Shown: positions 1 through 28,891 of the stretch, one piece after another
Layout of the letters: every line of letters begins with the position of its first letter
Position numbering within the stretch: position 1 is the stretch's first letter
Origin: Porphyridium purpureum
Lineage: Eukaryota
DNA length: 64,000 nt
Reading direction: 5' to 3'
Assembly (NCBI GenBank): GCA_008690995.1
Contig: VRMN01000002.1
Coordinates: forward strand, 2,170,001 to 2,234,000
Program-made: the position numbers and the translations under genes
The notes under the pieces: generated by a model
Database searches by the model: none
Told to the model about the DNA's origin: nothing
What the model saw: the letters and a program-made list of their open reading frames with translations, nothing else

Positions 1-3000
1 CCCCACCGGTCGACATAACGCGCCACATGCGCCGTGGCATAAGCGATGTCTGCTCGCGTGGTTCGGCTGAGCCACAGCAGTTGGCCAATCACTGTTCGCT
101 TGTTTGTCGGGCACGCGCGCCCGCCGGGTCCATTGTCGTCGACCCGCTCGCTGAGTGGCGTGCTGCGCACGCGCAAGTTGTCCGCGGTGTGGCCGTTCGC
201 CACATGGGTGGCGTACACCCCCGAATCCAGTATCCATCGGCCGCCGTCGCGATAGATGTGCATGCCGAGATACTTGATAGGGCGCGTACGCGCCGAGTCT
301 GCAATGTATTCGACCTTCTGGTCGATTCTGAAGACGGTCTTCAGTTGTTTGACCGCCACTCGTACCGCATCCGCATTGCCGAAGAGTGCGCCATCGTCGA
401 CGTACATGCTCAGCGTGAGCATGCTGCCGTTCGCGTCGCGGCGCCAGTACTGGTTCTTGTCCGCGTTGGATTCTTGCCATCCAAGCCGCCGGACACGCTC
501 GCGAGCGTCGTGGCTGAAGTCGCTGCCGCTCCTTTTCATTCCGTACAGAGCCTGCGGTAGCTCCACGACAGGCTCGCTGCATGCGGCCATCTTTCTGTAG
601 TCGGCTTCGCTGACTAGACCCTTCACGACCGGGACCAGGTCGCGCAGATATCCGAATGTCGGACGGCCGCCCAATGGTGCACTGGGGTAGGCACACGTTA
701 CGTCGAAGAAGGCGCCGTCGGCGGATGGTCCATGGAGCATGAGCGCCATGCTCATCGAGGCGCGGATCGCCAGCAAACCTGGTGGGCGATCAAAAGGATA
801 CGGTTCTTCGCGCGCGCGACGCCCATCGGCGTCCAGCACGACGCATCCTTGCGCGACGATGCGGCACTTCGTCTTGTGGAACGACGAAGGCATTTCTGAA
901 TTCTTCTTGTTGAAGAGGAGCTTCAACTTAACGAATTGCGCGTTCGGAACGCGCGCCGCCACTGCCTTGTCCATCGTGCGGCGGAAAGGCAGAGCGCCGG
1001 TGCTGGTGAGCGCACGAAGCTCGGATGCTAATGCATGGCGGCCGGCGGGCGTGGCCATCGCCACCGCTGTGGCCACAACTTCTGCCACCCCCAGACCTGC
1101 CGCTTCGTCCTCTGGTCCCCCTGTCGCCGCGCTTGTATACATTGCGTCGCTGCTACTCTCTGCTCGCGTCGCGTCGTTCCGCGTCGCGTCGCTCGCTGCT
1201 GCTGCGTGCACTGGAAGCACACCCAGTTCCGCTGCGCGCGCGCGTAAGCCGGCTGGTTTGCGGCCGCGCATGAAGAATGCTGGCCTACCCGCGATGGCAA
1301 GCCAGTCCTCACCAAAACGGGCAATGCCTTCGGATATGGCAATGTCCTCGGCCGGACTCCACGGCAGCTCAATGCGCCGATACTGTGCTCGTGACGCGAG
1401 CTTTCCGTGCTCGTCTCGGTAGCACTGGCAGTGCATTTGCCTGCATGCGCCGTCACCAGTGTGACGTCGGCTGGGCGCCGGACCCAAAATGCATTTCTCG
1501 CATTCGGTGCTCCCACCGACTATTTTCTTGCACTGTGTGCAGAATGCACGGTCCGGTGCATTGTCGCGTGCTCGCGACCATTGATCACCCGTCGCAATGG
1601 CCTCATCCGGAGGCCGCAGTGCCAAACGTCGCAATGGCCACTTGTCGGGAAGTGGCTTCCATTCGCCGACCTTCCTGATCGCAGATGGCCGCAAGTCGGC
1701 AATGGGCAGGGCGAGCAGGTTTATGGGCTGCCGCGGGTCATTCGGCCTCGGTGCCGTGAACCCAACGACGATTGCAGGCACGCCTTTCGGCTCAAATTTG
1801 CCGCGGCTCTCATCGTATATGAGAATGCCGCTCCCGAATGCAGGGATGGGCTTGTGCCATGTCAGACCGAGCCGTTGCTCGAAGCTGGTCTGCTCCTGCT
1901 TTGCGCCGCGCCAGGCGAGGTTTCTGGCCAGGCAAAAGTAGGCGGCGGCGAACGGATACCACGCGGTCGGCAAGCCAGACTGCATCAGCAGTGCTCGCAC
2001 TGCTCCGTTCAAGTCTGCATGCTTGCGTTCATGCGTCGCGTGCGTGTTCGCCCGGTAAGGTACACCAGTGACTTTCTTCACGCCCTTTTCCGCGATGAAT
2101 CCGTCGAATTCGCCCATGAACTCGCGGCCCTCGTCACACCGCAACACTCGTGGCCAATCACCACGTCCGCGCTGCAGCTCCGTCAACCCGCGAATGCACT
2201 CAGCGGCGGACTTGTCCGCCAGCCCAATTGCTGAGAACCACCCAGTGGCTTCGTCGAGGTGAGTGAGCAGCCACCTGCTGCCATCCACGGCTGCCAGTCC
2301 GGGATCCACAATGTCAATCGACACCACGTCGTTGAACTCGCGCGCTCGTCCGCGCTCTTTGCCAACCGAGTCGTCTCGCCTCACAGCACGCGCGCGCCGC
2401 AGCTTTGCCGCGCTGCATATTCCGCACGTGTCGCGCGACGGCATGTGCAGAACGCAATGGTCCTGCTCTACATGCTCAGCCTCGGCTGTGCCAAGACTGT
2501 GACCGCCGATGATCATTTCGAAGCGGTTGGTTCGAAGCCAATCGAGACCGATCACGAGGTCATTGTGGCCATTGTACACAATCACGTCCTGCTGCTTCTC
2601 TGCTGAATCCAGCACCGCCAGATTCACTGTCGCGCGCCCGCGAGACATGCACTGCGTGCCGTCTGCCAATCGAATGGTCAAGGCATTCGCGGTGCTATTT
2701 GTGCGCACTCGCACCATCGCGCATGCGCTCTCGCTCAGAAAGGTGTGCGTTGCGCCGGTATCGATGACTGCTTTCATCGCCCGGCCGTTCACCCAAGCAT
2801 TCACCTTGAGCAACCCTTTGCCCGCACTGGCGGTCATCAACTCGGCTCCGCCGAGATTGGCATCGCGATCATCGCGCCTGTCTGCACAGTTGTGCGTCGC
2901 TGGCCCCCACACGGAGCACCGATGGCAGTAATAGCGCCCACGCTGATTACTCTTCTTGCCATCTTGTTGCGACTTCGGCGTCTGTCGCGGTCGTGGTCTA

Positions 3001-4274
3001 CTGGCACCGCCTCGTTGCGGTGCGCCACGCTTCTGTCCGCGCCCACGCGCGTCGTTCTGGCCGCCACCACGGTTCCAACCATGCGTGCTCGGCTCTCGCC
3101 AGCCGCCGTCTCGTCCGTCCGCGCGGCTCTGCGCGTACCGCTCTGCATGATTCGCACGCAGGTTCCGCTGCGGTCCAGCTGGTGACCATTGGTCATGCTG
3201 TTGCTGTTGATACTCGTTCGAGCGATCCCGCTGGAAGTCGTTGTATCCTCGTCCGTGCACCCGTGCGCTGCTGCCGCTGGCGGTACCCAAGTCCATTGGC
3301 ACCGGACCATGCTGGTTATAGTTCATCTGGGGGTGGTATGCAGGCTGCATGGCTGACGGGTACGTTCGTGCTGTGATGGGCTGCTGGTCTCGACCACGCT
3401 TAAATATGACTTTGTCGGCAACTAAAGCCAAACGCAAAGCGTCGTCATAGGTGGGAGGGAAGTGAAGCGCTACGTGAGTGGCAATAGAAGTGTCAAGAGA
3501 TTCTGTAAAATAGTGAAGTTTATCTTTGTCTACCAAATTTGGTATACGCAGACAAACTTCACTAAATGCAGCTTCAAAATCTTGGACACTCATTGCACCC
3601 TGCTTCATCTTTTGCAGTTCATCCCGCACGTCATTTTCTGTTTCTTTTGGCTCGAAGCGCCGCTGAAGCGCGAGCAGAAACTCTTCTACCGAGGTGGGTC
3701 TCTGATCAGGTTGTAATGCCTGGTACCAGAGTTGCGCCAATCCGAAGAGGTGAGTCGAAAGCGTCGACACTGCTTCCTCTTCCTCGGTTTCCGTCCAAAG
3801 ACGGCCCTGCGACCGCCAATCCGAGCGCGCCGGGTTGTACACCCGCGAACGCGCTGCTGCCGTCCAGGTCATAATGGCCGCAGTGGATCGCTCGCCGCCA
3901 TAGTACAGCATGGCCGCAGGGCGCATGCAGCTCGGCAAAGCGCCACTTCCACCGGATCCATCGCGAAGCGCCCTCAGACGAACGTTCTCGCTCCGCAGCT
4001 CGGCGAGCTCACTCTGAACAATCGCCGTCCGGGTATTCAGTTCGGTCGCCATCTTGGCGCCGAATTCCTCCGAGAGTTGGCGATGCATTTGGGCGTATGC
4101 CGCATTCAGCATCGCCGCCATCTCTCGTTTCGTTTCCTCGCGCGCGGACTCGCGCCGCGCACTTGCTGCCGCGCCAAGGCGGGTTGCCGAGGCGTTTGCA
4201 CCACCGCGTGCCGGCGACGGTGTTGCTGGGGTACTAGCACCCGCAGCCCTATCCATGTCATATTCCATGACCAA
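1..4274 (-). CDS. Element A unit 1 Gag-Pol polyprotein, partial (3' end lies beyond the window start)
   Basis: Matches the unit 2 ORF shifted by -5636; ATG at 4274. One synonymous difference noticed, at 798. Confidence 0.9.
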   Translation of the reverse strand, partial: MVMEYDMDRAAGASTPATPSPARGGANASATRLGAAASARRESAREETKREMAAMLNAAYAQMHRQLSEEFGAKMATELNTRTAIVQSELAELRSENVRLRALRDGSGGSGALPSCMRPAAMLYYGGERSTAAIMTWTAAARSRVYNPARSDWRSQGRLWTETEEEEAVSTLSTHLFGLAQLWYQALQPDQRPTSVEEFLLALQRRFEPKETENDVRDELQKMKQGAMSVQDFEAAFSEVCLRIPNLVDKDKLHYFTESLDTSIATHVALHFPPTYDDALRLALVADKVIFKRGRDQQPITARTYPSAMQPAYHPQMNYNQHGPVPMDLGTASGSSARVHGRGYNDFQRDRSNEYQQQQHDQWSPAGPQRNLRANHAERYAQSRADGRDGGWREPSTHGWNRGGGQNDARGRGQKRGAPQRGGASRPRPRQTPKSQQDGKKSNQRGRYYCHRCSVWGPATHNCADRRDDRDANLGGAELMTASAGKGLLKVNAWVNGRAMKAVIDTGATHTFLSESACAMVRVRTNSTANALTIRLADGTQCMSRGRATVNLAVLDSAEKQQDVIVYNGHNDLVIGLDWLRTNRFEMIIGGHSLGTAEAEHVEQDHCVLHMPSRDTCGICSAAKLRRARAVRRDDSVGKERGRAREFNDVVSIDIVDPGLAAVDGSRWLLTHLDEATGWFSAIGLADKSAAECIRGLTELQRGRGDWPRVLRCDEGREFMGEFDGFIAEKGVKKVTGVPYRANTHATHERKHADLNGAVRALLMQSGLPTAWYPFAAAYFCLARNLAWRGAKQEQTSFEQRLGLTWHKPIPAFGSGILIYDESRGKFEPKGVPAIVVGFTAPRPNDPRQPINLLALPIADLRPSAIRKVGEWKPLPDKWPLRRLALRPPDEAIATGDQWSRARDNAPDRAFCTQCKKIVGGSTECEKCILGPAPSRRHTGDGACRQMHCQCYRDEHGKLASRAQYRRIELPWSPAEDIAISEGIARFGEDWLAIAGRPAFFMRGRKPAGLRARAAELGVLPVHAAAASDATRNDATRAESSSDAMYTSAATGGPEDEAAGLGVAEVVATAVAMATPAGRHALASELRALTSTGALPFRRTMDKAVAARVPNAQFVKLKLLFNKKNSEMPSSFHKTKCRIVAQGCVVLDADGRRAREEPYPFDRPPGLLAIRASMSMALMLHGPSADGAFFDVTCAYPSAPLGGRPTFGYLRDLVPVVKGLVSEADYRKMAACSEPVVELPQALYGMKRSGSDFSHDARERVRRLGWQESNADKNQYWRRDANGSMLTLSMYVDDGALFGNADAVRVAVKQLKTVFRIDQKVEYIADSARTRPIKYLGMHIYRDGGRWILDSGVYATHVANGHTADNLRVRSTPLSERVDDNGPGGRACPTNKRTVIGQLLWLSRTTRADIAYATAHVARYVDRW

Positions 4275-4502
4275 ACACTGGGCGCGTCGCGCTCACCAGT
4301 TGCGCTTCGAGCGCCTCTTTTTTCCTTCTCGATGTTCGCGGCGCCGATCAGCGTCTTGGCTGTCGCGCTGCCACAGTCGCTTTTCCAAAGCGTGATCGAG
4401 GGTAGAGTTGGGGAATGACCGAATGATAGAAACACTACCACAATAGGTGGTTAGTCAAGCAAGCAAGAAGAAGAAAGATGAGGGAAACACCGCAGCGCAA
4501 AG

Positions 4503-4518
4503 GCTGGGCTCATAACCC
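4503..4518 (-). promoter_or_regulatory. Primer-binding site GGGTTATGAGCCCAGC, complementary to the anticodon arm of initiator tRNA-Met (half-tRNA priming); also at 10139-10154 and 28565-28580
   Basis: The plus strand reads GCTGGGCTCATAACCC, the tRNA-iMet anticodon stem-loop with the CAT anticodon, 2 nt from the LTR end. Drosophila copia and yeast Ty5 use this type of PBS. Confidence 0.85.
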
Positions 4519-4520
4519 TT

Positions 4521-4817
4521 TGATGATAGCGTCTTCGTGAAGCACGCGTATACCAAACGTGTACCAATAGTAAACTACTGGTGGCTAGCTGAAGCAAGAG
4601 GTCCACAACAAGACGACTTTACTCCTTAACACAACCTAGCTCTTGCCTCAAAAGGAGACAGAGCGCCGACTCGTCGGCCGTCTCTCACACTCTAATGATA
4701 TACTACTGTGGTTAACCATTACGGTCACCAACCAACGGAGAGTTGTCATCATTAAGTATTTGATGACTCCTCATCACGTCATCAGGCAGGCAGAGAGGGA
4801 TGACTATATTCCACGCA
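4521..4817 (-). repeat. LTR of element A (297 bp, TG...CA), shared by units 1 and 2
   Basis: Bounded by the PBS (2-nt spacer) on one side and the PPT on the other; repeated at 10157-10453 and 28583-28877. Confidence 0.9.
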
Positions 4818-4833
4818 CCCCCTCATCACTTCT
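4818..4833 (-). promoter_or_regulatory. Polypurine tract of element A (AGAAGTGATGAGGGGG); also at 10454-10469
   Basis: Purine-rich run between the pol stop codon and the LTR start. Confidence 0.8.
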
Positions 4834-4855
4834 GCGCTGGCTGCAAAGGAACGAA

Positions 4856-7800
4856 TCACACTCGCTCGACAAGGTGCCAGCGGGTGTACGGATCACTGTC
4901 ACACGACATCTTCTCATCATCATGGCTGTACGCATAGCCGCGCATGCCAGCGTCATCGTCGCAGTCGTCGGGCTGCATGAGCATCGCGAAGGCGTTGCCA
5001 CGGTTTGCGGCGGAGCGAGCATGCGTCATACGCTGGGCGATGCCAAGGGATAAGCTTGCACCGTACAGGCCCCACGCGGCTGCATGGCCGCGAAACACGT
5101 CGGTGGCAATCGGCTTCGTCAAGCCGTCAGCGATGTTGTCGCGCGTAGCGACATAGACGAACCTGACGAGTCCGTCCGCTGCTATCTCGTGCAACCATCT
5201 CAGAGAGATGCGCTGCATCTTTGGCGCATGCAGTAGCCGGTCACTGTGGCCGCGCTCCACCGCGCGCAAAGTCGACTCGTTGTCGCACCGCACAACGGTC
5301 GGAGGCCAGCGCCTCAAAAGTTCTTCCGCCAGTGTCGCCACTGGGAACACGCTGCCTTGCGCTGCGTCGTGCAGCGCTACCAACTCAGCCTCGGTCGTCG
5401 AGGTGCTGACGCGCCGCTGGCGCCGACTGGTCCAGTCTACAAGGTGTCGGCATCTGCCATTCGATATGAAGAGCACGGCGCCGCTCGTGGATGACGGTGC
5501 CGAGAAGTCGGCATCAGCCCACGCGTGCAACCGAACGTCGCGACTGCCTGTCGCGGGTATGTCGTATTGCAGACAGACGTCCGCATGCTTCTTCAGATAC
5601 CCGACGATCTCGTCGAGCGCGCGATCCGCGCTTGGCCCCCACCGGTCGACATAACGCGCCACATGCGCCGTGGCATAAGCGATGTCTGCTCGCGTGGTTC
5701 GGCTGAGCCACAGCAGTTGGCCAATCACTGTTCGCTTGTTTGTCGGGCACGCGCGCCCGCCGGGTCCATTGTCGTCGACCCGCTCGCTGAGTGGCGTGCT
5801 GCGCACGCGCAAGTTGTCCGCGGTGTGGCCGTTCGCCACATGGGTGGCGTACACCCCCGAATCCAGTATCCATCGGCCGCCGTCGCGATAGATGTGCATG
5901 CCGAGATACTTGATAGGGCGCGTACGCGCCGAGTCTGCAATGTATTCGACCTTCTGGTCGATTCTGAAGACGGTCTTCAGTTGTTTGACCGCCACTCGTA
6001 CCGCATCCGCATTGCCGAAGAGTGCGCCATCGTCGACGTACATGCTCAGCGTGAGCATGCTGCCGTTCGCGTCGCGGCGCCAGTACTGGTTCTTGTCCGC
6101 GTTGGATTCTTGCCATCCAAGCCGCCGGACACGCTCGCGAGCGTCGTGGCTGAAGTCGCTGCCGCTCCTTTTCATTCCGTACAGAGCCTGCGGTAGCTCC
6201 ACGACAGGCTCGCTGCATGCGGCCATCTTTCTGTAGTCGGCTTCGCTGACTAGACCCTTCACGACCGGGACCAGGTCGCGCAGATATCCGAATGTCGGAC
6301 GGCCGCCCAATGGTGCACTGGGGTAGGCACACGTTACGTCGAAGAAGGCGCCGTCGGCGGATGGTCCATGGAGCATGAGCGCCATGCTCATCGAGGCGCG
6401 GATCGCCAGCAAACCTGGTGGGCGATCAAAAGGGTACGGTTCTTCGCGCGCGCGACGCCCATCGGCGTCCAGCACGACGCATCCTTGCGCGACGATGCGG
6501 CACTTCGTCTTGTGGAACGACGAAGGCATTTCTGAATTCTTCTTGTTGAAGAGGAGCTTCAACTTAACGAATTGCGCGTTCGGAACGCGCGCCGCCACTG
6601 CCTTGTCCATCGTGCGGCGGAAAGGCAGAGCGCCGGTGCTGGTGAGCGCACGAAGCTCGGATGCTAATGCATGGCGGCCGGCGGGCGTGGCCATCGCCAC
6701 CGCTGTGGCCACAACTTCTGCCACCCCCAGACCTGCCGCTTCGTCCTCTGGTCCCCCTGTCGCCGCGCTTGTATACATTGCGTCGCTGCTACTCTCTGCT
6801 CGCGTCGCGTCGTTCCGCGTCGCGTCGCTCGCTGCTGCTGCGTGCACTGGAAGCACACCCAGTTCCGCTGCGCGCGCGCGTAAGCCGGCTGGTTTGCGGC
6901 CGCGCATGAAGAATGCTGGCCTACCCGCGATGGCAAGCCAGTCCTCACCAAAACGGGCAATGCCTTCGGATATGGCAATGTCCTCGGCCGGACTCCACGG
7001 CAGCTCAATGCGCCGATACTGTGCTCGTGACGCGAGCTTTCCGTGCTCGTCTCGGTAGCACTGGCAGTGCATTTGCCTGCATGCGCCGTCACCAGTGTGA
7101 CGTCGGCTGGGCGCCGGACCCAAAATGCATTTCTCGCATTCGGTGCTCCCACCGACTATTTTCTTGCACTGTGTGCAGAATGCACGGTCCGGTGCATTGT
7201 CGCGTGCTCGCGACCATTGATCACCCGTCGCAATGGCCTCATCCGGAGGCCGCAGTGCCAAACGTCGCAATGGCCACTTGTCGGGAAGTGGCTTCCATTC
7301 GCCGACCTTCCTGATCGCAGATGGCCGCAAGTCGGCAATGGGCAGGGCGAGCAGGTTTATGGGCTGCCGCGGGTCATTCGGCCTCGGTGCCGTGAACCCA
7401 ACGACGATTGCAGGCACGCCTTTCGGCTCAAATTTGCCGCGGCTCTCATCGTATATGAGAATGCCGCTCCCGAATGCAGGGATGGGCTTGTGCCATGTCA
7501 GACCGAGCCGTTGCTCGAAGCTGGTCTGCTCCTGCTTTGCGCCGCGCCAGGCGAGGTTTCTGGCCAGGCAAAAGTAGGCGGCGGCGAACGGATACCACGC
7601 GGTCGGCAAGCCAGACTGCATCAGCAGTGCTCGCACTGCTCCGTTCAAGTCTGCATGCTTGCGTTCATGCGTCGCGTGCGTGTTCGCCCGGTAAGGTACA
7701 CCAGTGACTTTCTTCACGCCCTTTTCCGCGATGAATCCGTCGAATTCGCCCATGAACTCGCGGCCCTCGTCACACCGCAACACTCGTGGCCAATCACCAC

Positions 7801-9910
7801 GTCCGCGCTGCAGCTCCGTCAACCCGCGAATGCACTCAGCGGCGGACTTGTCCGCCAGCCCAATTGCTGAGAACCACCCAGTGGCTTCGTCGAGGTGAGT
7901 GAGCAGCCACCTGCTGCCATCCACGGCTGCCAGTCCGGGATCCACAATGTCAATCGACACCACGTCGTTGAACTCGCGCGCTCGTCCGCGCTCTTTGCCA
8001 ACCGAGTCGTCTCGCCTCACAGCACGCGCGCGCCGCAGCTTTGCCGCGCTGCATATTCCGCACGTGTCGCGCGACGGCATGTGCAGAACGCAATGGTCCT
8101 GCTCTACATGCTCAGCCTCGGCTGTGCCAAGACTGTGACCGCCGATGATCATTTCGAAGCGGTTGGTTCGAAGCCAATCGAGACCGATCACGAGGTCATT
8201 GTGGCCATTGTACACAATCACGTCCTGCTGCTTCTCTGCTGAATCCAGCACCGCCAGATTCACTGTCGCGCGCCCGCGAGACATGCACTGCGTGCCGTCT
8301 GCCAATCGAATGGTCAAGGCATTCGCGGTGCTATTTGTGCGCACTCGCACCATCGCGCATGCGCTCTCGCTCAGAAAGGTGTGCGTTGCGCCGGTATCGA
8401 TGACTGCTTTCATCGCCCGGCCGTTCACCCAAGCATTCACCTTGAGCAACCCTTTGCCCGCACTGGCGGTCATCAACTCGGCTCCGCCGAGATTGGCATC
8501 GCGATCATCGCGCCTGTCTGCACAGTTGTGCGTCGCTGGCCCCCACACGGAGCACCGATGGCAGTAATAGCGCCCACGCTGATTACTCTTCTTGCCATCT
8601 TGTTGCGACTTCGGCGTCTGTCGCGGTCGTGGTCTACTGGCACCGCCTCGTTGCGGTGCGCCACGCTTCTGTCCGCGCCCACGCGCGTCGTTCTGGCCGC
8701 CACCACGGTTCCAACCATGCGTGCTCGGCTCTCGCCAGCCGCCGTCTCGTCCGTCCGCGCGGCTCTGCGCGTACCGCTCTGCATGATTCGCACGCAGGTT
8801 CCGCTGCGGTCCAGCTGGTGACCATTGGTCATGCTGTTGCTGTTGATACTCGTTCGAGCGATCCCGCTGGAAGTCGTTGTATCCTCGTCCGTGCACCCGT
8901 GCGCTGCTGCCGCTGGCGGTACCCAAGTCCATTGGCACCGGACCATGCTGGTTATAGTTCATCTGGGGGTGGTATGCAGGCTGCATGGCTGACGGGTACG
9001 TTCGTGCTGTGATGGGCTGCTGGTCTCGACCACGCTTAAATATGACTTTGTCGGCAACTAAAGCCAAACGCAAAGCGTCGTCATAGGTGGGAGGGAAGTG
9101 AAGCGCTACGTGAGTGGCAATAGAAGTGTCAAGAGATTCTGTAAAATAGTGAAGTTTATCTTTGTCTACCAAATTTGGTATACGCAGACAAACTTCACTA
9201 AATGCAGCTTCAAAATCTTGGACACTCATTGCACCCTGCTTCATCTTTTGCAGTTCATCCCGCACGTCATTTTCTGTTTCTTTTGGCTCGAAGCGCCGCT
9301 GAAGCGCGAGCAGAAACTCTTCTACCGAGGTGGGTCTCTGATCAGGTTGTAATGCCTGGTACCAGAGTTGCGCCAATCCGAAGAGGTGAGTCGAAAGCGT
9401 CGACACTGCTTCCTCTTCCTCGGTTTCCGTCCAAAGACGGCCCTGCGACCGCCAATCCGAGCGCGCCGGGTTGTACACCCGCGAACGCGCTGCTGCCGTC
9501 CAGGTCATAATGGCCGCAGTGGATCGCTCGCCGCCATAGTACAGCATGGCCGCAGGGCGCATGCAGCTCGGCAAAGCGCCACTTCCACCGGATCCATCGC
9601 GAAGCGCCCTCAGACGAACGTTCTCGCTCCGCAGCTCGGCGAGCTCACTCTGAACAATCGCCGTCCGGGTATTCAGTTCGGTCGCCATCTTGGCGCCGAA
9701 TTCCTCCGAGAGTTGGCGATGCATTTGGGCGTATGCCGCATTCAGCATCGCCGCCATCTCTCGTTTCGTTTCCTCGCGCGCGGACTCGCGCCGCGCACTT
9801 GCTGCCGCGCCAAGGCGGGTTGCCGAGGCGTTTGCACCACCGCGTGCCGGCGACGGTGTTGCTGGGGTACTAGCACCCGCAGCCCTATCCATGTCATATT
9901 CCATGACCAA
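4856..9910 (-). CDS. Element A unit 2 intact single-ORF polyprotein, 1684 aa: Gag - aspartic protease - integrase - Cys-rich module - Myb/SANT-like domain - Copia-type RT - RNase H
   Basis: Gag with GPVPMDLG. PR VIDTGAT...DLVIGLDWL. INT HCVLH..CGIC, SIDIVD, RCDEGREF, HERK, KFEPKG..IVVGF. RT KCRIVAQG, FDVTCAY, QALYGMKRSG, MYVDD. RNase H WADADF, STTEAE, CDN, NIADGLTK. Confidence 0.95.
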   Translation of the reverse strand: MVMEYDMDRAAGASTPATPSPARGGANASATRLGAAASARRESAREETKREMAAMLNAAYAQMHRQLSEEFGAKMATELNTRTAIVQSELAELRSENVRLRALRDGSGGSGALPSCMRPAAMLYYGGERSTAAIMTWTAAARSRVYNPARSDWRSQGRLWTETEEEEAVSTLSTHLFGLAQLWYQALQPDQRPTSVEEFLLALQRRFEPKETENDVRDELQKMKQGAMSVQDFEAAFSEVCLRIPNLVDKDKLHYFTESLDTSIATHVALHFPPTYDDALRLALVADKVIFKRGRDQQPITARTYPSAMQPAYHPQMNYNQHGPVPMDLGTASGSSARVHGRGYNDFQRDRSNEYQQQQHDQWSPAGPQRNLRANHAERYAQSRADGRDGGWREPSTHGWNRGGGQNDARGRGQKRGAPQRGGASRPRPRQTPKSQQDGKKSNQRGRYYCHRCSVWGPATHNCADRRDDRDANLGGAELMTASAGKGLLKVNAWVNGRAMKAVIDTGATHTFLSESACAMVRVRTNSTANALTIRLADGTQCMSRGRATVNLAVLDSAEKQQDVIVYNGHNDLVIGLDWLRTNRFEMIIGGHSLGTAEAEHVEQDHCVLHMPSRDTCGICSAAKLRRARAVRRDDSVGKERGRAREFNDVVSIDIVDPGLAAVDGSRWLLTHLDEATGWFSAIGLADKSAAECIRGLTELQRGRGDWPRVLRCDEGREFMGEFDGFIAEKGVKKVTGVPYRANTHATHERKHADLNGAVRALLMQSGLPTAWYPFAAAYFCLARNLAWRGAKQEQTSFEQRLGLTWHKPIPAFGSGILIYDESRGKFEPKGVPAIVVGFTAPRPNDPRQPINLLALPIADLRPSAIRKVGEWKPLPDKWPLRRLALRPPDEAIATGDQWSRARDNAPDRAFCTQCKKIVGGSTECEKCILGPAPSRRHTGDGACRQMHCQCYRDEHGKLASRAQYRRIELPWSPAEDIAISEGIARFGEDWLAIAGRPAFFMRGRKPAGLRARAAELGVLPVHAAAASDATRNDATRAESSSDAMYTSAATGGPEDEAAGLGVAEVVATAVAMATPAGRHALASELRALTSTGALPFRRTMDKAVAARVPNAQFVKLKLLFNKKNSEMPSSFHKTKCRIVAQGCVVLDADGRRAREEPYPFDRPPGLLAIRASMSMALMLHGPSADGAFFDVTCAYPSAPLGGRPTFGYLRDLVPVVKGLVSEADYRKMAACSEPVVELPQALYGMKRSGSDFSHDARERVRRLGWQESNADKNQYWRRDANGSMLTLSMYVDDGALFGNADAVRVAVKQLKTVFRIDQKVEYIADSARTRPIKYLGMHIYRDGGRWILDSGVYATHVANGHTADNLRVRSTPLSERVDDNGPGGRACPTNKRTVIGQLLWLSRTTRADIAYATAHVARYVDRWGPSADRALDEIVGYLKKHADVCLQYDIPATGSRDVRLHAWADADFSAPSSTSGAVLFISNGRCRHLVDWTSRRQRRVSTSTTEAELVALHDAAQGSVFPVATLAEELLRRWPPTVVRCDNESTLRAVERGHSDRLLHAPKMQRISLRWLHEIAADGLVRFVYVATRDNIADGLTKPIATDVFRGHAAAWGLYGASLSLGIAQRMTHARSAANRGNAFAMLMQPDDCDDDAGMRGYAYSHDDEKMSCDSDPYTRWHLVERV

Positions 9911-10156
9911 ACACTGGGCGCGTCGCGCTCACCAGTTGCGCTTCGAGCGCCTCTTTTTTCCTTCTCGATGTTCGCGGCGCCGATCAGCGTCTTGGCTGTC
10001 GCGCTGCCACAGTCGCTTTTCCAAAGCGTGATCGAGGGTAGAGTTGGGGAATGACCGAATGATAGAAACACTACCACAATAGGTGGTTAGTCAAGCAAGC
10101 AAGAAGAAGAAAGATGAGGGAAACACCGCAGCGCAAAGGCTGGGCTCATAACCCTT

Positions 10157-10453
10157 TGATGATAGCGTCTTCGTGAAGCACGCGTATACCAAACGTGTAC
10201 CAATAGTAAACTACTGGTGGCTAGCTGAAGCAAGAGGTCCACAACAAGACGACTTTACTCCTTAACACAACCTAGCTCTTGCCTCAAAAGGAGACAGAGC
10301 GCCGACTCGTCGGCCGTCTCTCACACTCTAATGATATACTACTGTGGTTAACCATTACGGTCACCAACCAACGGAGAGTTGTCATCATTAAGTATTTGAT
10401 GACTCCTCATCACGTCATCAGGCAGGCAGAGAGGGATGACTATATTCCACGCA
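10157..10453 (-). repeat. LTR of element A shared by units 2 and 3
   Basis: Identical by eye to 4521-4817. Confidence 0.9.
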
Positions 10454-10491
10454 CCCCCTCATCACTTCTGCGCTGGCTGCAAAGGAACGAA

Positions 10492-13400
10492 TCACACTCG
10501 CTCGACAAGGTGCCAGCGGGTGTACGGATCACTGTCACACGACATCTTCTCATCATCATGGCTGTACGCATAGCCGCGCATGCCAGCGTCATCGTCGCAG
10601 TCGTCGGGCTGCATGAGCATCGCGAAGGCGTTGCCACGGTTTGCGGCGGAGCGAGCATGCGTCATACGCTGGGCGATGCCAAGGGATAAGCTTGCACCGT
10701 ACAGGCCCCACGCGGCTGCATGGCCGCGAAACACGTCGGTGGCAATCGGCTTCGTCAAGCCGTCAGCGATGTTGTCGCGCGTAGCGACATAGACGAACCT
10801 GACGAGTCCGTCCGCTGCTATCTCGTGCAACCATCTCAGAGAGATGCGCTGCATCTTTGGCGCATGCAGTAGCCGGTCACTGTGGCCGCGCTCCACCGCG
10901 CGCAAAGTCGACTCGTTGTCGCACCGCACAACGGTCGGAGGCCAGCGCCTCAAAAGTTCTTCCGCCAGTGTCGCCACTGGGAACACGCTGCCTTGCGCTG
11001 CGTCGTGCAGCGCTACCAACTCAGCCTCGGTCGTCGAGGTGCTGACGCGCCGCTGGCGCCGACTGGTCCAGTCTACAAGGTGTCGGCATCTGCCATTCGA
11101 TATGAAGAGCACGGCGCCGCTCGTGGATGACGGTGCCGAGAAGTCGGCATCAGCCCACGCGTGCAACCGAACGTCGCGACTGCCTGTCGCGGGTATGTCG
11201 TATTGCAGACAGACGTCCGCATGCTTCTTCAGATACCCGACGATCTCGTCGAGCGCGCGATCCGCGCTTGGCCCCCACCGGTCGACATAACGCGCCACAT
11301 GCGCCGTGGCATAAGCGATGTCTGCTCGCGTGGTTCGGCTGAGCCACAGCAGTTGGCCAATCACTGTTCGCTTGTTTGTCGGGCACGCGCGCCCGCCGGG
11401 TCCATTGTCGTCGACCCGCTCGCTGAGTGGCGTGCTGCGCACGCGCAAGTTGTCCGCGGTGTGGCCGTTCGCCACATGGGTGGCGTACACCCCCGAATCC
11501 AGTATCCATCGGCCGCCGTCGCGATAGATGTGCATGCCGAGATACTTGATAGGGCGCGTACGCGCCGAGTCTGCAATGTATTCGACCTTCTGGTCGATTC
11601 TGAAGACGGTCTTCAGTTGTTTGACCGCCACTCGTACCGCATCCGCATTGCCGAAGAGTGCGCCATCGTCGACGTACATGCTCAGCGTGAGCATGCTGCC
11701 GTTCGCGTCGCGGCGCCAGTACTGGTTCTTGTCCGCGTTGGATTCTTGCCATCCAAGCCGCCGGACACGCTCGCGAGCGTCGTGGCTGAAGTCGCTGCCG
11801 CTCCTTTTCATTCCGTACAGAGCCTGCGGTAGCTCCACGACAGGCTCGCTGCATGCGGCCATCTTTCTGTAGTCGGCTTCGCTGACTAGACCCTTCACGA
11901 CCGGGACCAGGTCGCGCAGATATCCGAATGTCGGACGGCCGCCCAATGGTGCACTGGGGTAGGCACACGTTACGTCGAAGAAGGCGCCGTCGGCGGATGG
12001 TCCATGGAGCATGAGCGCCATGCTCATCGAGGCGCGGATCGCCAGCAAACCTGGTGGGCGATCAAAAGGGTACGGTTCTTCGCGCGCGCGACGCCCATCG
12101 GCGTCCAGCACGACGCATCCTTGCGCGACGATGCGGCACTTCGTCTTGTGGAACGACGAAGGCATTTCTGAATTCTTCTTGTTGAAGAGGAGCTTCAACT
12201 TAACGAATTGCGCGTTCGGAACGCGCGCCGCCACTGCCTTGTCCATCGTGCGGCGGAAAGGCAGAGCGCCGGTGCTGGTGAGCGCACGAAGCTCGGATGC
12301 TAATGCATGGCGGCCGGCGGGCGTGGCCATCGCCACCGCTGTGGCCACAACTTCTGCCACCCCCAGACCTGCCGCTTCGTCCTCTGGTCCCCCTGTCGCC
12401 GCGCTTGTATACATTGCGTCGCTGCTACTCTCTGCTCGCGTCGCGTCGTTCCGCGTCGCGTCGCTCGCTGCTGCTGCGTGCACTGGAAGCACACCCAGTT
12501 CCGCTGCGCGCGCGCGTAAGCCGGCTGGTTTGCGGCCGCGCATGAAGAATGCTGGCCTACCCGCGATGGCAAGCCAGTCCTCACCAAAACGGGCAATGCC
12601 TTCGGATATGGCAATGTCCTCGGCCGGACTCCACGGCAGCTCAATGCGCCGATACTGTGCTCGTGACGCGAGCTTTCCGTGCTCGTCTCGGTAGCACTGG
12701 CAGTGCATTTGCCTGCATGCGCCGTCACCAGTGTGACGTCGGCTGGGCGCCGGACCCAAAATGCATTTCTCGCATTCGGTGCTCCCACCGACTATTTTCT
12801 TGCACTGTGTGCAGAATGCACGGTCCGGTGCATTGTCGCGTGCTCGCGACCATTGATCACCCGTCGCAATGGCCTCATCCGGAGGCCGCAGTGCCAAACG
12901 TCGCAATGGCCACTTGTCGGGAAGTGGCTTCCATTCGCCGACCTTCCTGATCGCAGATGGCCGCAAGTCGGCAATGGGCAGGGCGAGCAGGTTTATGGGC
13001 TGCCGCGGGTCATTCGGCCTCGGTGCCGTGAACCCAACGACGATTGCAGGCACGCCTTTCGGCTCAAATTTGCCGCGGCTCTCATCGTATATGAGAATGC
13101 CGCTCCCGAATGCAGGGATGGGCTTGTGCCATGTCAGACCGAGCCGTTGCTCGAAGCTGGTCTGCTCCTGCTTTGCGCCGCGCCAGGCGAGGTTTCTGGC
13201 CAGGCAAAAGTAGGCGGCGGCGAACGGATACCACGCGGTCGGCAAGCCAGACTGCATCAGCAGTGCTCGCACTGCTCCGTTCAAGTCTGCATGCTTGCGT
13301 TCATGCGTCGCGTGCGTGTTCGCCCGGTAAGGTACACCAGTGACTTTCTTCACGCCCTTTTCCGCGATGAATCCGTCGAATTCGCCCATGAACTCGCGGC

Positions 13401-14527
13401 CCTCGTCACACCGCAACACTCGTGGCCAATCACCACGTCCGCGCTGCAGCTCCGTCAACCCGCGAATGCACTCAGCGGCGGACTTGTCCGCCAGCCCAAT
13501 TGCTGAGAACCACCCAGTGGCTTCGTCGAGGTGAGTGAGCAGCCACCTGCTGCCATCCACGGCTGCCAGTCCGGGATCCACAATGTCAATCGACACCACG
13601 TCGTTGAACTCGCGCGCTCGTCCGCGCTCTTTGCCAACCGAGTCGTCTCGCCTCACAGCACGCGCGCGCCGCAGCTTTGCCGCGCTGCATATTCCGCACG
13701 TGTCGCGCGACGGCATGTGCAGAACGCAATGGTCCTGCTCTACATGCTCAGCCTCGGCTGTGCCAAGACTGTGACCGCCGATGATCATTTCGAAGCGGTT
13801 GGTTCGAAGCCAATCGAGACCGATCACGAGGTCATTGTGGCCATTGTACACAATCACGTCCTGCTGCTTCTCTGCTGAATCCAGCACCGCCAGATTCACT
13901 GTCGCGCGCCCGCGAGACATGCACTGCGTGCCGTCTGCCAATCGAATGGTCAAGGCATTCGCGGTGCTATTTGTGCGCACTCGCACCATCGCGCATGCGC
14001 TCTCGCTCAGAAAGGTGTGCGTTGCGCCGGTATCGATGACTGCTTTCATCGCCCGGCCGTTCACCCAAGCATTCACCTTGAGCAACCCTTTGCCCGCACT
14101 GGCGGTCATCAACTCGGCTCCGCCGAGATTGGCATCGCGATCATCGCGCCTGTCTGCACAGTTGTGCGTCGCTGGCCCCCACACGGAGCACCGATGGCAG
14201 TAATAGCGCCCACGCTGATTACTCTTCTTGCCATCTTGTTGCGACTTCGGCGTCTGTCGCGGTCGTGGTCTACTGGCACCGCCTCGTTGCGGTGCGCCAC
14301 GCTTCTGTCCGCGCCCACGCGCGTCGTTCTGGCCGCCACCACGGTTCCAACCATGCGTGCTCGGCTCTCGCCAGCCGCCGTCTCGTCCGTCCGCGCGGCT
14401 CTGCGCGTACCGCTCTGCATGATTCGCACGCAGGTTCCGCTGCGGTCCAGCTGGTGACCATTGGTCATGCTGTTGCTGTTGATACTCGTTCGAGCGATCC
14501 CGCTGGAAGTCGTTGTATCCTCGTCCG
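10492..14527 (-). pseudogene. Element A unit 3, 3' half (NC-PR-INT-Myb-RT-RH, frame open), separated from gag by insertion of B
   Basis: Matches unit 2 up to the TCCG target duplication at 14524-14527. Confidence 0.9.
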
Positions 14528-14815
14528 TGCCGTGATATGGTCCTGAATGGCCCACTCACTCCCCTCCTCCGCTAGCCCGGCCGCACGGAGAACCTATACC
14601 CCAATCCTGCTGGCCCCATCGGCCCTCTCTTTTACTCTTGCTAGATCGCCGCGACGGCGGTCTTAAATACCCTTCTCTACCCTACGCTAACCGTTAGACT
14701 GTTTAAGAACCTAAGAATAACCGCTGCCCGGTACGGACAAGGATTGTTATGGTACAGTGCGGGGCAGTGCTGTACAGTGCGTGGAGGGGTACGGCGGAGA
14801 GAGCGAGTCATGACA
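14528..14815 (-). repeat. 3' LTR of element B
   Basis: Identical by eye to 27026-27313; preceded on the minus strand by the G-rich tract TTAGGGGTTAGTGGGGATG (about 14816-14834). Confidence 0.93.
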
Positions 14816-15730
14816 CATCCCCACTAACCCCTAAGCCGCTTGCGCTAGTGCGCGGCAGAGGAACTTGGACAGTCTGTCGGAGAAAACCGTAAAACCGGAA
14901 CCGTGCAAAGTTACACGCGAAAATGTGCAACGACTGTCTGAAAAAACGAGATCGAAAGACGAGGAAAAGGACGAGTAATGCTTCGGATCGAGCGCGAAAC
15001 GGACGCAGTAGGTACAATACTGTACCTCAAGTACTGAACACCAGGTGAACACCCGAGCCAGAGCATCACGAAGATGTCGAAGGCCTCGAACACTGCGAAC
15101 ACTTATTGCGCGGGCGAACAAACGCCAGACGACTCGTGAAGCTCTCCGGGACATCATCCAAGGAAATGACAAACACTGGCCCTAGGAACTCGAAGAGCGG
15201 TTCGCGCATTCGCTCGCGCGCGGAGTGCGACTTTTGCGGATTTCCCGGCCGGAAATTGTGAATGCGATTACCTTCGCAAAGATGAAAGCAACGAGAAAAC
15301 GCTTTCACATCGTTCACTTTCTAGGCTGACACAACGCACATGCCAATGTTTAGCCGGGTCTGCCGGTGAACTCAAGGAGAACTCGAAATGCACCTTCTTT
15401 TGTAGTCGAAAGTTTCATCGTCGAGGCAAACTCGATGCGCGCACTCTTTCTCTGCGTTTGAGTTGACGTAGGTGACACAAATCGGTGCAGCCTCCATCTC
15501 GACATCGAGGGCAATGCGCGAACGCTCGTTTCGGCTCCACGACGCCTCCCTGCGCGATGCGAGAACTGTCGTTCTCTGCTGTTCGACTTGTTTTCGACTG
15601 CGCATCGGCGCTTCGACGAAATGAATGTGGGATTCGCTGTCGCACACTGTGTACATTCAAGGCGCAACCGCGCTGGATTTGAGAGACTCGAAGTCCGCGT
15701 TCAAACTCACGAGGAAAGACTCGCGTGCGC

Positions 15731-18700
15731 TTATTGGAACCGACGACCAGACCGTGATCGAAGGACATCAGCGGGATTTTGCGCAGACTCGAGAAACTCG
15801 GCAACCAATGTTTCCGGCAAGTCCTCGGACTTCTCCCAAGTCCATTCAGAGCGCTTGGCCCCGTACCACGCGACGAGAAACTCGGTGGAGCCATCGATGA
15901 GGCGCTGTTTCTGCAAACTTGCTATCTCAGAGAGGACACTGTCGCGACGCTCTCCATCCGCGTTGAAGTCATCCCTGAGTTCTACAGATTGATCAACACG
16001 CTTCAGCCTGTCAAGATGCACGAAGAATGTCTCGAAGGCATTGCGGATCGTAGCGCGGGCGCCATCGATGACTTCGAGTATATACGGACCGACCCACGGG
16101 CTCTCGAGTTTACGACCTTGAAGTGTACTCACCCCACGCCAGAGCATTACCGCGTCGCCCTCCGAGAGGCGCTGGCCTTGCTTTGTGACCTTTTCGGCAC
16201 TGCGCCTCGCATCCTTGTCGTGGCTTTTATCCGATGCGCGCAACGCTACTTGATGCATCATCCGAATCCTACCGCGTAGCTGATAGCCAAATTCCTCGAG
16301 GCTGTCCGTTTCCAGCTCGGCGTCGATCGCTGGCTGAGAATAGTCATTCGCAGTACGTCCAAACATAGCTTCGTATGGACTCACGCCAGTCGATGAATGT
16401 CGCGACGAATTATAAGCGTGCACGGATAACGGAAGCCACAGATCCCACCCGATAGACGCGTCGTGATCTGCCATCATGCCGGATAACAAGCCGCACAGCG
16501 TTCGGTTATAGCGTTCCACGACTCCGTTTGCTTTTGGATTATGTGCCATAGTAAAGACCTTCTTGATGCCGAGAAGCTGGCTGACTCGTGACAAAAACTC
16601 GGATCGAAATGCAGGTCCGTTGTCACTAAGAAGGTTCTCGGGGGGCCCAAACGGTGCGACCCATACGTGCAGAAAAGCTTCCACCGCAGATCGAGCTGAC
16701 TCGTCGACCACCGGTGCTGCGACGGTAAAACGAGTGAACAGATCAGCGACCACCAAGACCTTGGTATATCCGCGAGGTGTCTTCGGGGAAATCGTGAGGA
16801 GATCGACTGCAACAAGCTCGAAGCGTCGCGTTGGCCGACGTCTGCCGATGACTACCTGCTGCCTTCGCAGACCCTTTCGCCTTGAGCAAAACCGACATGA
16901 TTGGATGAATTCGCTGACATCCGAGGTCCAACCCGGCCAGTACCATGACGCATCCGCGATCCTTGAGATCGTCTTAGCCGCGCCCATATGCCCGCCTGCA
17001 CCCGTTGAATGATAGTATCCCAGAACACGACTCACGAACGCATCCGGAACCACACGCCGAGGCTTTTTTGTTGCCGCCATCAGAATGCCCGCCTCGTTCC
17101 AGAAGTATTCCGGGTCGCTGTACTGTGGTGTGCTTCGAGCGAGGTTCTCCATTTCTTTGGCGATGAGCTCATCTCTCGGGTACGCTGCCTTCAGCTCTTC
17201 GTCAGTTGGTAGTTCGTGTGCCGTGTTGCTGTCTTCACTCACAGCTGTGACGAGGTACGCCACGCGGTCGCCACGAGAACTCCTGCTTTCTTGTTCGTCG
17301 AGATTCATACGCGAGAGTGCGTCAGGTACCTTATTCGACGCACCCTTCACGTACTCAATAACGAACGAATAATCTGCCAAAGCCAATGCCCACCTTGCTA
17401 GACGGCCCCTCGGCTCCCGCAGATTCAACAACCATCGGAGCGGCTCGTGATCAGAGCGGACTATAATCGACTCACCGTATAGATAATGCCGACACTTACG
17501 TACCGCCCACACAACCGCAAGGCACTCTAGTTCTGTCACGGCGTAGTTCTTCTCCGCGGCAGTCAATGACCGCGATAGAAAGCACACCGGTCGATACTCG
17601 CTCGAAACGCGCTGATACAGCGCTGCTCCGAGTCCCGTCAACGAGGCATCTGTATCAAGGACCCACTCTGCTCCCGCAGATGGCTGATACAAAACCACCG
17701 TTGGGTCCGTCAGCGCCGACTTAAGGGCCTCGAATGCTAGCTTCTGCCCAGCGCCAAACCGATTGGCCCAATCGCTGCATTCAACGACCTGCTTCTTCGA
17801 ATGTTTTTTTGCGGACATGGCGAGACCTTCGAGAGACGCACGCAACGGAGCTGCGACGCGCTCGAAGTTCGGAACGAAGTCACGAAACCAGCCCACAACG
17901 CCTAGAAACCGCTGAACTTCTGTCGGATTTCTCGGTTCGGTCCATTGTCGGATGACCTCGATGTTTCGCTCTTTCGGGCGAATCTTACCATTTTGCACTT
18001 GGTGACCAAGAAATTCGATTTTGGTGCACATGAAGGAGCACTTCTTCAAAGAAAATGTGAGACCTTCTTTTTCGAAGCGTTCCAGAATTTGATCCAGTAT
18101 TTGAATGTGATCCTCTCCAGACGATGAACCTACGATGAGGTCATCGATGTAAATGAGTGCGTGTTTCCAGCGCAGGTCACCGAGGACCGTGTTCATCAAT
18201 CGTTGGAATGTTGCTGGGCTATTCGACATGCCTTGACCAATGACGCAGTATCGGAAAAGCCCCAGTGGGGTAATCATCGCGGTCAAGTCTCGGGAATCAG
18301 CGTGCAGCGGGATCTGAAAGAACCCGTCAGTCAAATCGAGAGTACTGAACAACGAATATCGACCAGCCCAATCGAGGCATTCATGCACGAGTGGGATCGG
18401 GTACTTGTCCTTCACCGTAATGGCGTTCAGGTTCCTGAAATCCGTAGTTAATCGCCACGCACCCGTCGGTTTCCGGATCAAGACGTTTGCCGAGGCAAAC
18501 GGGCCATTGCACGGTTCCAAGACATGATGATCAAGGAGCTTGCGTACCATTGTTTCTTCGGCTTCGCGCTCTGCCTCCGACCGTCGTCGCAATTTCGCCG
18601 CGGGAAAGGTCGCGCCCGGCTCCACCCGGATAACGTGCTCGACAGAGCGGGCCCTTCCGGCTTCTGCTCGGAACACTCGCCACCGCTTTTTGAGAACCCC

Positions 18701-19552: not shown

Positions 19553-20668
19553 TCACTCAGATCCTAGAGGACCACTCCTTCCAACCCGATGGTGTCCACT
19601 CGCCTGAACCGGAGCTGTCTCCTGACACTCGCGTGCCCAATGCCCTGGTTGCTTGCATCGATAACACACGCTGGAATCCTGGCGCTTCTCCAGGATTTGC
19701 GCGACATGCTCCGCAATGACTGTCCAGTCCGACGCGGGGGAAATGGCTTCATTATGTCGCGGTAGCAGGCCTTCCTGGTAATCTCCACCGTGTTCTGGAA
19801 GCGATGGGCTCTCGTTGTTCTGGCGAATCGATGCAACACTCGGCGACCGGAAGCGGAAGTCACTGAACGTCAAGCGCTCGCCGTGCTCCTTCAGCATCTC
19901 GTGGAGAAGACCTTCATACTGCTCTTGCTTGGAGTGGAGCCTAGCCATCGGTTGATACCTTTTCGGTAAACCTTCGACGAAGTCCACCTTCAGGTCAGCT
20001 TCTGTCATCCCCAGCGCTGCCCCGATCTCTCGCAAGTCACGATGGAAAGCCGACAGATTCTCGTTGCGCTGCAGTCTCCGACTGCGATACTCGCTGCGGA
20101 TCGAAGAAACGATGGACTCCGACCAGAAACGCTCCTGTGCCCAGCACCACATATCCTCGGACGTCGCGCTTCGCTTCAGCTCACCATTCATAAATGCATC
20201 GTTGATCATATGCTCTGCTGGCCCGGAAAACGCGAAGACAACGCAATCGCGCGCCCATTCCTCTGGGAATCGGTGCGTGCAGTTCATCCATTTTCGATAT
20301 GTATTCATGAATCGGAGATCTCTCGGTCCACGAATCTCATTGCCTCGCATCGCATCGCGCACAACGCGCTCAAATCGAGTCTGCTCGAACAGATCCTTGA
20401 CTGGGACGACGTTGGACATTAATGCATGATCGACTATAGGCTGGTTCGGGACTGACACATTGTCCTTCGACTGCGACCACGCACTCAGCGCATCCTGCAT
20501 TGCCTCACGCATCGTGGTAGGCATGTCCGTCTTTAACTCCTCCAATTGCTCTTTCATCGAGGCCATCTGATCCCGCAGATCCTCGGCTTCCTTCGAAACT
20601 GATGCTGCAGTTGGTCGCGCCGCTCTGGAGGAAGCCGATGCGTGCACCGTTTCTTCACTGTCGTTCAT
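19553..20668 (-). CDS. Element B Gag with CCHC zinc knuckle
   Basis: CYRCKQPGHWAREC knuckle, retrotransposon-gag-like helical region (LQRNENLSAF...FVEGLP), position upstream of pol. Confidence 0.9.
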   Translation of the reverse strand: MNDSEETVHASASSRAARPTAASVSKEAEDLRDQMASMKEQLEELKTDMPTTMREAMQDALSAWSQSKDNVSVPNQPIVDHALMSNVVPVKDLFEQTRFERVVRDAMRGNEIRGPRDLRFMNTYRKWMNCTHRFPEEWARDCVVFAFSGPAEHMINDAFMNGELKRSATSEDMWCWAQERFWSESIVSSIRSEYRSRRLQRNENLSAFHRDLREIGAALGMTEADLKVDFVEGLPKRYQPMARLHSKQEQYEGLLHEMLKEHGERLTFSDFRFRSPSVASIRQNNESPSLPEHGGDYQEGLLPRHNEAISPASDWTVIAEHVAQILEKRQDSSVCYRCKQPGHWARECQETAPVQASGHHRVGRSGPLGSE

Positions 20669-20874
20669 CGTATAAAAGGGCGGTTTCAACGCTGACTAGA
20701 CCCGACGATTGACCTTTTTGTGGTTTTTAAATCCACCTAGTGCCCCAGGCACTGATGGTAATCCGCTCACGGCCAGGCCGATCTTGCAGAAAGATTAGTG
20801 AAAGATGCTCGGGTCAAAGTCCCAGACTTCACCCGAGCCAAAAAGAAAACCCGCTCACGGCCAGGCCGTCTCAC

Positions 20875-28877: not shown

Positions 28878-28891
28878 ATAGTGTACACGCA

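Follow-up and report, generated by a model that had tools for sequence, protein, structure and literature searches.

Within a 64,000-nt stretch of contig VRMN01000002.1 of the red alga Porphyridium purpureum (hereafter the window, to which all coordinates refer), we examined a long terminal repeat (LTR) retrotransposon that very probably joins a Gag and a protease of Ty3/Gypsy type to an integrase, a reverse transcriptase (RT) and an RNase H of Ty1/Copia type, through an ancient replacement of gag and protease in an ancestral Porphyridium Copia element. The element is a Copia by its enzymes and gene order and a Gypsy by its capsid and protease, and it carries all the defining features of neither. 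A first-pass annotation of the letters had read it as an intact, recently amplified recombinant between superfamilies. Its recombinant nature is supported by a split between domains in Pfam searches, by canonical Copia controls, by trees and by an inversion of Gag and RT distances. It is also intact: the gag-pol open reading frame (ORF), on the minus strand, runs uninterrupted for 1682 aa from an ATG at 9904 to a single stop at 4856, within two codons of the span of 4856-9910 first proposed, and lies between identical LTRs of 298 bp. All the motifs quoted earlier (PVPMDLG, IDTGAT, IRLADG, IGLDWL, KCRIVAQG, ALYGMK, YVDD and NIADGLTK) were found in the order given, and the ORF product has a 100% identical counterpart in the database (P0099). 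The intact unit consists of:

10154..10451, minus strand: 5′ LTR, 298 bp, common to the upstream unit (from three identical copies and flank breaks in independent runs)
10142..10153, minus strand: primer-binding site (PBS), flush with the LTR, sequence GGTTATGAGCCC
4856..9904, minus strand: gag-pol ORF, 1682 aa (100% match to P0099)
8912..9538, minus strand: Gag capsid domain, Ty3/Gypsy type, with PVPMDLG at its end (Pfam, PDB profile search, model, Gag tree)
8522..8563, minus strand: nucleocapsid zinc knuckle, degenerate, C-x2-C-x7-H-x-C (motif)
8132..8470, minus strand: aspartic protease, Gypsy type, DTG ... IGLDW (Pfam, protease tree, protease profiles)
7262..8104, minus strand: integrase, Copia side, with short zinc finger H-x3-H-x6-C-x2-C, DDE core and SH3-like part
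7058..7177, minus strand: Cys/His-rich motif 3′ of the integrase, also in outgroup members of the lineage
6845..7000, minus strand: Myb-like three-helix domain between integrase and RT (Pfam E 0.018, MYB21/MYB24 matches, helices in the model)
5702..6718, minus strand: RT, Copia type (Pfam, RT searches, trees)
5063..5701, minus strand: RNase H region, Copia type, with NIADGLTK
4816..4833, minus strand: polypurine tract (PPT), flush with the 3′ LTR (sequence)
4518..4815, minus strand: 3′ LTR, 298 bp, doubling as the 5′ LTR of the next unit

Per-domain profile searches, which the first-pass annotation had proposed as a check, divided the ORF in two. In the front part Pfam returned Retrotrans_gag (E 3.6e-12), Ty3_capsid (1.3e-10), gag-asp_proteas (2.3e-10) and RVP_2 (4.3e-7), with four Gypsy/retroviral-type protease models matching over the protease region; behind them came rve (3.7e-8), a weak Myb match and RVT_2 (4.6e-6). 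The Copia gag, Pol_BBD and RVT_1 models gave no match on the ORF at E values up to 1, nor did Pfam find a Copia-type Gag (PF14223/PF14244) in it. As a control, none of 34 canonical Copia polyproteins matched any of five Gypsy-type Gag and protease models (E 0.001), while 32 of the 34 matched PF14223 and 33 matched PF22936. The likeness of the Gag to that of a neighbouring element in the window, Gypsy C, had been noticed by eye and was confirmed by BLASTP (24% identity over 225 aa, E 3.6e-10). The same claim for the protease stood at the level of family profiles, which scored Gypsy C at 45 bits for the protease and 133 bits for Gag, but not in the single-sequence comparison of the two proteases, where E 0.1 was not reached. 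The family RT and RNase H profiles gave no score on Gypsy elements C or D.

A Gag-protease profile built from six family members had Ty3 Gag-Pol as its top PDB match (E 2e-9), from the capsid through the protease, followed by DDI1, Ty3 capsid, dArc, ASPRV1 and PEG10; no Ty1 or copia Gag occurred among its 44 PDB matches up to E 1. Against proteins this profile produced five matches, and the three from outside the family were all RVT_1 Gypsy polyproteins; a single-sequence Gag-protease search returned itself only, a limit of the word index. Over 293 collected proteins, the family Gag profile scored family members and four Gypsy proteins and nothing else. Conversely, a Copia Gag profile built here gave 85-213 bits to held-out Copias and at most 22 bits, confined to the zinc knuckle, to the chimeric proteins described below. 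In 11 of 11 chimeric proteases, a Gypsy protease profile (five sequences) scored 20-44.5 bits, above either Copia profile (21 and 15 sequences; at most 18.4 bits), and all 11 bore an ILG-like motif in place of the Copia type (LLS, Pol_BBD). According to excerpts of PMC2774666, LLS is the Copia protease state and ILG that of the other families, with very few exceptions. ESM Atlas leads for Gag-protease fell mostly in Gypsy-type families (0.85-0.91) and the integrase had none at 0.9; neither result was used as evidence.

The Copia traits that had been ascribed to the order, RT and RNase H of the element were all recovered: the integrase lies upstream of RT and RNase H, the RT matches RVT_2 and the RNase H region carries NIADGLTK. 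The element has neither the RVT_1-type RT and Gypsy RNase H of Ty3/Gypsy nor a Gypsy H2C2/GPY-F integrase placed after RNase H. The top PDB match of an integrase-RT-RNase H profile was the integrase 7z0h_W (E 2.7e-8), which we take to be that of Ty1, and in a fold search the predicted integrase model matched retroviral integrases only, and these matches masked its Myb part. The Myb-like region gave PDB matches to MYB21/MYB24 at E ~0.001, and its Pfam match is weak but recurrent in the family (E 0.018 here, 8.7e-5 in P0009 and 3.3e-5 in P0007). In P0171, an outgroup member, the region matching window positions 6845-7177 holds a zf-CW domain.

The same build is found in seven P. purpureum families (the window element, P0002, P0003, P0004/P0107, P0008, P0009 and P0272), each with a single protein that unites a Gag and a protease of Gypsy type with the integrase, RT and RNase H of a Copia. 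They place the element in a lineage, as the first-pass annotation had suspected. The RT-RNase H regions of these chimeras are 34-55% identical to that of the window element with all catalytic motifs kept, and a canonical CCHC zinc knuckle occurs in the sister families P0003, P0008 and P0107. An RT-RNase H search gave 87 matches. Besides the cluster of the element itself, these were eight relatives with 35-55% identity and 78 Copia proteins at a greater distance, and in none of these 78 was a Gypsy-type Gag or protease family found. Against 1.84 billion proteins, the integrase-RT-RNase H profile added 146 further proteins among its best 150. Two metagenome clusters (P0187/P0279 from ENA and P0259/P0280 from JGI) have a Gypsy-type protease ahead of a short-zinc-finger integrase, and the hybrid may extend beyond P. 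purpureum; P0005 and P0006 (Logan) are further relatives from run assemblies. A metagenome scan yielded at least 31 loci, at most 29% identical among the matches listed, and 0 of 31 had a match to the family Gag or protease or a short zinc finger; viral contigs scanned with the integrase-RT-RNase H alignment and with the Gypsy C pol yielded no relative. In two related families, P0115 and P0271, gag seems to end past the zinc knuckle in a frame of its own, as in Gypsy C, the frames being those of the source gene models. As for copy number, the mates of the element in its 90%-identity cluster are all from P. purpureum, and near-identical copies lie on at least 12 distinct contigs (15 of 16 cluster members). 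Since these copies are 96-100% identical to the window protein, the amplification is recent, as first proposed.

The short zinc finger H-x3-H-x6-C-x2-C is common to the chimeras and to a wider set of Copia proteins, whose protease ends were LLS-like in 15 of the 15 extracted (by a loose pattern). We built per-domain trees, also proposed beforehand, with rows picked from search matches by domain completeness. With five Gypsy references, they bore out the placement of the protease with Gypsy and of integrase and RT with Copia-type sequences. The tree of the protease, with 52 rows and 117 columns, placed 11 chimeric and five Gypsy rows on one branch (96/91), and forcing the chimeric proteases together with the proteases of their RT sister group was rejected (approximately unbiased (AU) test, p 0.004). 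The RT-RNase H tree (55 rows, quick search) separated canonical Copia from the short-zinc-finger lineage at 100 and nested the chimeras in the latter; four added Gypsies stood apart at 100/100. In the integrase tree the chimeras grouped with the short-zinc-finger lineage (92/96), and Gypsy was again apart (100/98). Judged by sequence, the Copia half is from this divergent lineage and not from the canonical Copia clade. On the Gypsy side, the P0009 protease is sister to that of Gypsy C (93/67), and the P0272 Gag is the nearest to the Gypsy C Gag.

Several points weigh against a replacement of gag and protease. The five Gypsy references are the only ones in the trees and none comes from GyDB or REXdb, and the trees were computed under LG+G4 without a mixture model. 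Gypsy C falls inside the chimeras in the Gag tree weakly (63/86), and a Gag clade made up of chimeras alone is not rejected (p 0.288). Forcing the chimeric proteases with the short-zinc-finger lineage gave a borderline result (AU p 0.049), and an RT constraint uniting the chimeras and Gypsy is not rejected (p 0.174). On this copy RVT_2 reaches 26.8 bits, under the cut-off of 31.6, which is exceeded in P0009, P0272 and P0005-7. The capsid model (AlphaFold, seven sequences, predicted local distance difference score (pLDDT) 77) has a two-lobed capsid fold and aligns with the Copia capsid 8vvw (Z 12.4, 165 aligned, root-mean-square deviation (rmsd) 5.1) as well as with PEG10 (Z 13.3, 84 aligned, rmsd 2.0), 8vvw having the best query TM-score in Foldseek; because the Arc/PEG10/Ty3 and Copia capsids score alike on the model, structure leaves the superfamily undecided. 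The element is, moreover, known here from its sequence and RNA reads. A single origin of the Gypsy-type block fits the Gag test (p 0.288) and is not rejected, one capture or several both being possible.

As the RT constraint is not rejected, the Copia root could fall on the chimeric branch, leaving room for a different history in which the chimeras are the earliest Copia branch and have retained the Gag and protease of the ancestor of Copia and Gypsy. The unplaced RT root (p-AU 0.174), the chimera-only Gag clade and an RT very divergent from that of canonical Copia (22% identity) would suit such a relic, but the distances between elements run the other way. Gypsy C and P0272 are 39.7% identical in Gag and 18.6% in RT-RNase H, whereas for Gypsy C and the Gypsy P0281 the order is reversed (27.6% and 45.9%). 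Measured from Gypsy C, the Gag/RT distance ratio is 0.29-0.52 to six chimeras and 2.1 and 2.6 to two Gypsies, an inversion of about five-fold (the ratio is 1.15-2.5 within the chimeric family), which argues for transfer rather than ancestral retention. Saturation may compress Gag distances, and this weakens the inversion without removing it; in addition, the RT-RNase H tree nests the chimeras among relatives with LLS-like proteases. Altogether we consider ancestral retention unlikely. Under the preferred reading, a replacement of gag and protease, the swap is old, in contrast to the recent amplification: Gag, protease and RT diverged jointly from family to family, so that the swap predates the radiation of the families. 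Because of this age, Gypsy C counts as related to the donor rather than as an established donor.

A Gypsy element whose integrase moved upstream, or one that captured nothing but the RT and RNase H of a Copia, could also look like this one. Gmr1 Gypsy elements do show the Copia gene order in the excerpts of PMC2774666, and Gag, protease and the split gag and pol frames of two families are Gypsy-like. However, the RT of the chimeric family matches RVT_2 and never RVT_1; the integrase is on the Copia side, lacks Integrase_H2C2 and in P0125, P0134, P0135 and P0280 matches a Copia-type SH3 model; and the PBS is unlike the TGG-type PBS of Gypsy C. The RT and integrase placements largely refute this origin, which we regard as very improbable, while a Gypsy that took the Copia integrase-RT-RNase H block together with its cis-sites is the same hybrid in equally valid words. 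We also give almost no credence to an assembly artefact or a dead nested insertion mimicking a single element. A mis-duplicated long-read assembly could yield tandem units as nearly identical as those seen here (1 difference in 8894), and nested Gypsy insertions are common at the locus; nevertheless, the frame is open across the junction in all seven families, at 34-55% RT-RNase H identity and with catalytic motifs preserved, the copies are many and dispersed, and RNA reads show neither joints nor loose ends at the junction. What could still be an assembly artefact is the tandem array itself.

A group of relatives is likely to record a second module swap, with its seam between integrase and RT. 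P0287 of P. purpureum adjoins the chimeras in the RT-RNase H tree (97) and keeps the Myb-like motif, and it has a PF14223 Gag and a PF22936 protease. Its integrase falls with canonical Copia (99/98), alongside those of P0174, P0138 and P0139. All four proteins combine the RT-RNase H clade of the chimeras with a canonical Copia integrase and, where these parts are present, Copia Gag and protease. P0174, like P0287, retains the Myb-like motif.

The units of the array are repeated head to tail with a period of 5636 and 1 difference over 8894 bases, and the analysed ORF belongs to the middle one. Two nested Gypsy elements, 12.8 kb together, interrupt the first unit; the outer one is a chromodomain Gypsy with 288-bp LTRs and a 4-bp duplication. 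The remaining features of the locus are:

1..4815, minus strand: next tandem unit, truncated by the window edge (1 base different over 8894, period 5636)
10154..14527, minus strand: first tandem unit, 3′ part
14528..27313, minus strand: nested Gypsy elements interrupting gag in the first unit, namely a Gypsy with chromodomain that holds Gypsy C (20875-26715)
27314..28877, minus strand: first tandem unit, 5′ part, including the 5′ LTR at 28580-28877

At window positions 1-14527 there are at least three units with shared LTRs, and a true array and an assembly duplication are both possible. Within the ORF, the capsid-coding segment 9002-9541 has 52% GC (0.51 at third codon positions) against 58-64% across the remainder, and a 344-bp segment in the leader of Gypsy C (25723-26454), taking in the PBS region and the edge of the LTR, is directly duplicated with 98% identity.

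The three LTRs of the array (4518-4815, 10154-10451 and 28580-28877) are identical and have 298 bp each. In reads and contigs from other runs, the match to the element breaks off at 10154 or 28580 at one end and at 4815 or 28877 at the opposite end; in two flanks it continues for one or two letters beyond these breaks. Because the flanks of independent runs break there, the LTR ends are 5′-CG...AG-3′ and not the TG...CA of Ty1/Copia; TG and CA sit 2 and 3 nt inside. The ends are flush with the PPT and the PBS and suggest a joining of untrimmed cDNA ends. The two neighbouring Gypsy elements have ordinary TG...CA LTRs, and the PBS of Gypsy C is of TGG type. We presume the PBS GGTTATGAGCCC to be of the half-tRNA-iMet type, like that of Ty5 and copia; a search of the window gave no tRNA gene. 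Hemiviruses prime by a half-tRNA, as an excerpt of PMC1181622 states.

Transcription of the family was followed in three raw RNA runs under one species label, in which reads come from several copies and probably from another strain; transcription therefore holds for the family and not for this locus. The runs contributed 164, 962 and 187 reads, which reached 28, 30 and 27 of 30 bins, and none of the reads showed a joint, whether at the protease-integrase junction or as a splice joint that could give a gag-only RNA, the depth being low. The library is stranded, as judged by a neighbouring host gene, and in the deepest run sense reads dominate over the protease and the junction. In run X22, over 4521-10451, antisense depth is similar to sense depth across parts of integrase and RT and exceeds it in the leader. 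In the RNA runs the end of the Gypsy C LTR was also found joined to copies of the family, at three internal positions (7536, 9325 and 9577), which with the nest in the window makes four cases of Gypsy C nested in this family.

A working cycle of the hybrid can be sketched. Genomic RNA would be driven by the LTR, in keeping with the sense reads; the Gypsy-type protease would cleave the polyprotein and the Gypsy-type Gag would form the particle and pack the RNA. The Copia-type RT would then prime at the PBS and PPT of its own lineage, both sites being visible here with a presumed primer, and the Copia-type integrase would insert the cDNA without trimming to CA, since the inserted LTRs end flush with the PBS and PPT. 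The copies are apparently still multiplying. The breakpoint between the protease and the zinc finger of the integrase implies that capsid and maturation protease moved as one co-adapted module while the enzymes kept their cis-sites. The route was probably the insertion of a Gypsy into a Copia copy, transcription of both together and then a template switch or deletion; alternatively, recombination could have taken place in a co-packaged pair.

The sequence CTGTAC occurs, in one orientation or the other, no more than 30 nt from the LTR in four of 10 distinct flanks, the flank at window positions 28878-28907 being one of the 10. Of 30-nt windows taken from the host part of the window outside long ORFs, 2.3% contain it. 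The motif was chosen post hoc, from few flanks that are biased towards RNA. It is speculative that the Myb-like domain aims insertion. A broader proposal, which we put forward tentatively and think rather doubtful, is that in this undescribed Copia lineage capsid-protease is a freely exchangeable module captured from Gypsy more than once in Porphyridium-type algae, that a sister branch took the Gag, protease and integrase of a canonical Copia, that the integrase inserts untrimmed CG...AG ends and that the Myb domain directs it to promoter DNA bearing CTGTAC.

LTR retrotransposons are sorted into classes by their RT and the order of their genes, Gag and protease being assumed to go along. The success and diversity of this hybrid would mean that Copia enzymes can be packaged and matured by the capsid and protease of a Gypsy in spite of a very old divergence, with a natural seam between protease and integrase. 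Active, near-identical copies in a small culturable alga could offer a system for RNA packaging, polyprotein cleavage and cDNA end processing under such a swap. Annotation by RT alone hides such hybrids, and the chimeric proteins carry the plain label 'Copia protein'.

Among known systems, the Ty1/Copia elements (Pseudoviridae), in particular those of Hemivirus type (Ty5, copia, Osser), share with the chimera the order protease, integrase, RT and RNase H, the RVT_2 RT, the Copia motif at the RNase H end, the single ORF and presumably a PBS of the half-tRNA-iMet type. They differ in that the chimera has a Gypsy-type Gag and protease (ILG-like, not LLS), a short zinc finger, CG...AG LTR ends and a Myb-like domain, and gives no GAG-pre-integrase match. 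With the Ty3/Gypsy elements (Metaviridae; Ty3 and the two Gypsies of the window) it shares the capsid, the MDLG motif, the protease and, in two related families, a gag apparently in its own frame, but its integrase lies upstream of RT, and integrase, RT, RNase H and cis-sites are not of Gypsy type. PyRE10G of Porphyra yezoensis, from a 2008 paper by Peddigari and colleagues, is reportedly, to go by the title, a red-algal copia-like element with a gypsy-like integrase. Compared by this description, the gypsy-like part there is the integrase, whereas in the chimera the integrase belongs to the Copia side and Gag and protease are Gypsy-like. The literature searched gave no account of a Copia element whose Gag and protease are of Gypsy type, nor of the Porphyridium families treated here; the PyRE10G paper, known by title, may bear on priority.

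GalEa-like elements have been reported from Porphyridium cruentum (excerpt of PMC3587641), and PMC5445492 gives that clade a PBS TGGTAGCAGAGC (or a fungal hairpin) and TGT...CA LTRs; the element described here has neither that PBS nor those ends and is set apart from GalEa by description. Gmr1, with Gypsy RT and integrase according to the same excerpts of PMC2774666 as above, shares the Gypsy Gag and protease and the integrase ahead of RT, but in the chimera RT and integrase are Copia. The CoDi-A Copia elements of diatoms have a chromodomain at the integrase C-terminus, again from excerpts of PMC2774666, and as far as these go the chimera is likewise a Copia with an added module of chromatin- or DNA-binding type by the integrase C-terminus, the difference being that this module is Myb-like and that Gag and protease have very probably been replaced.

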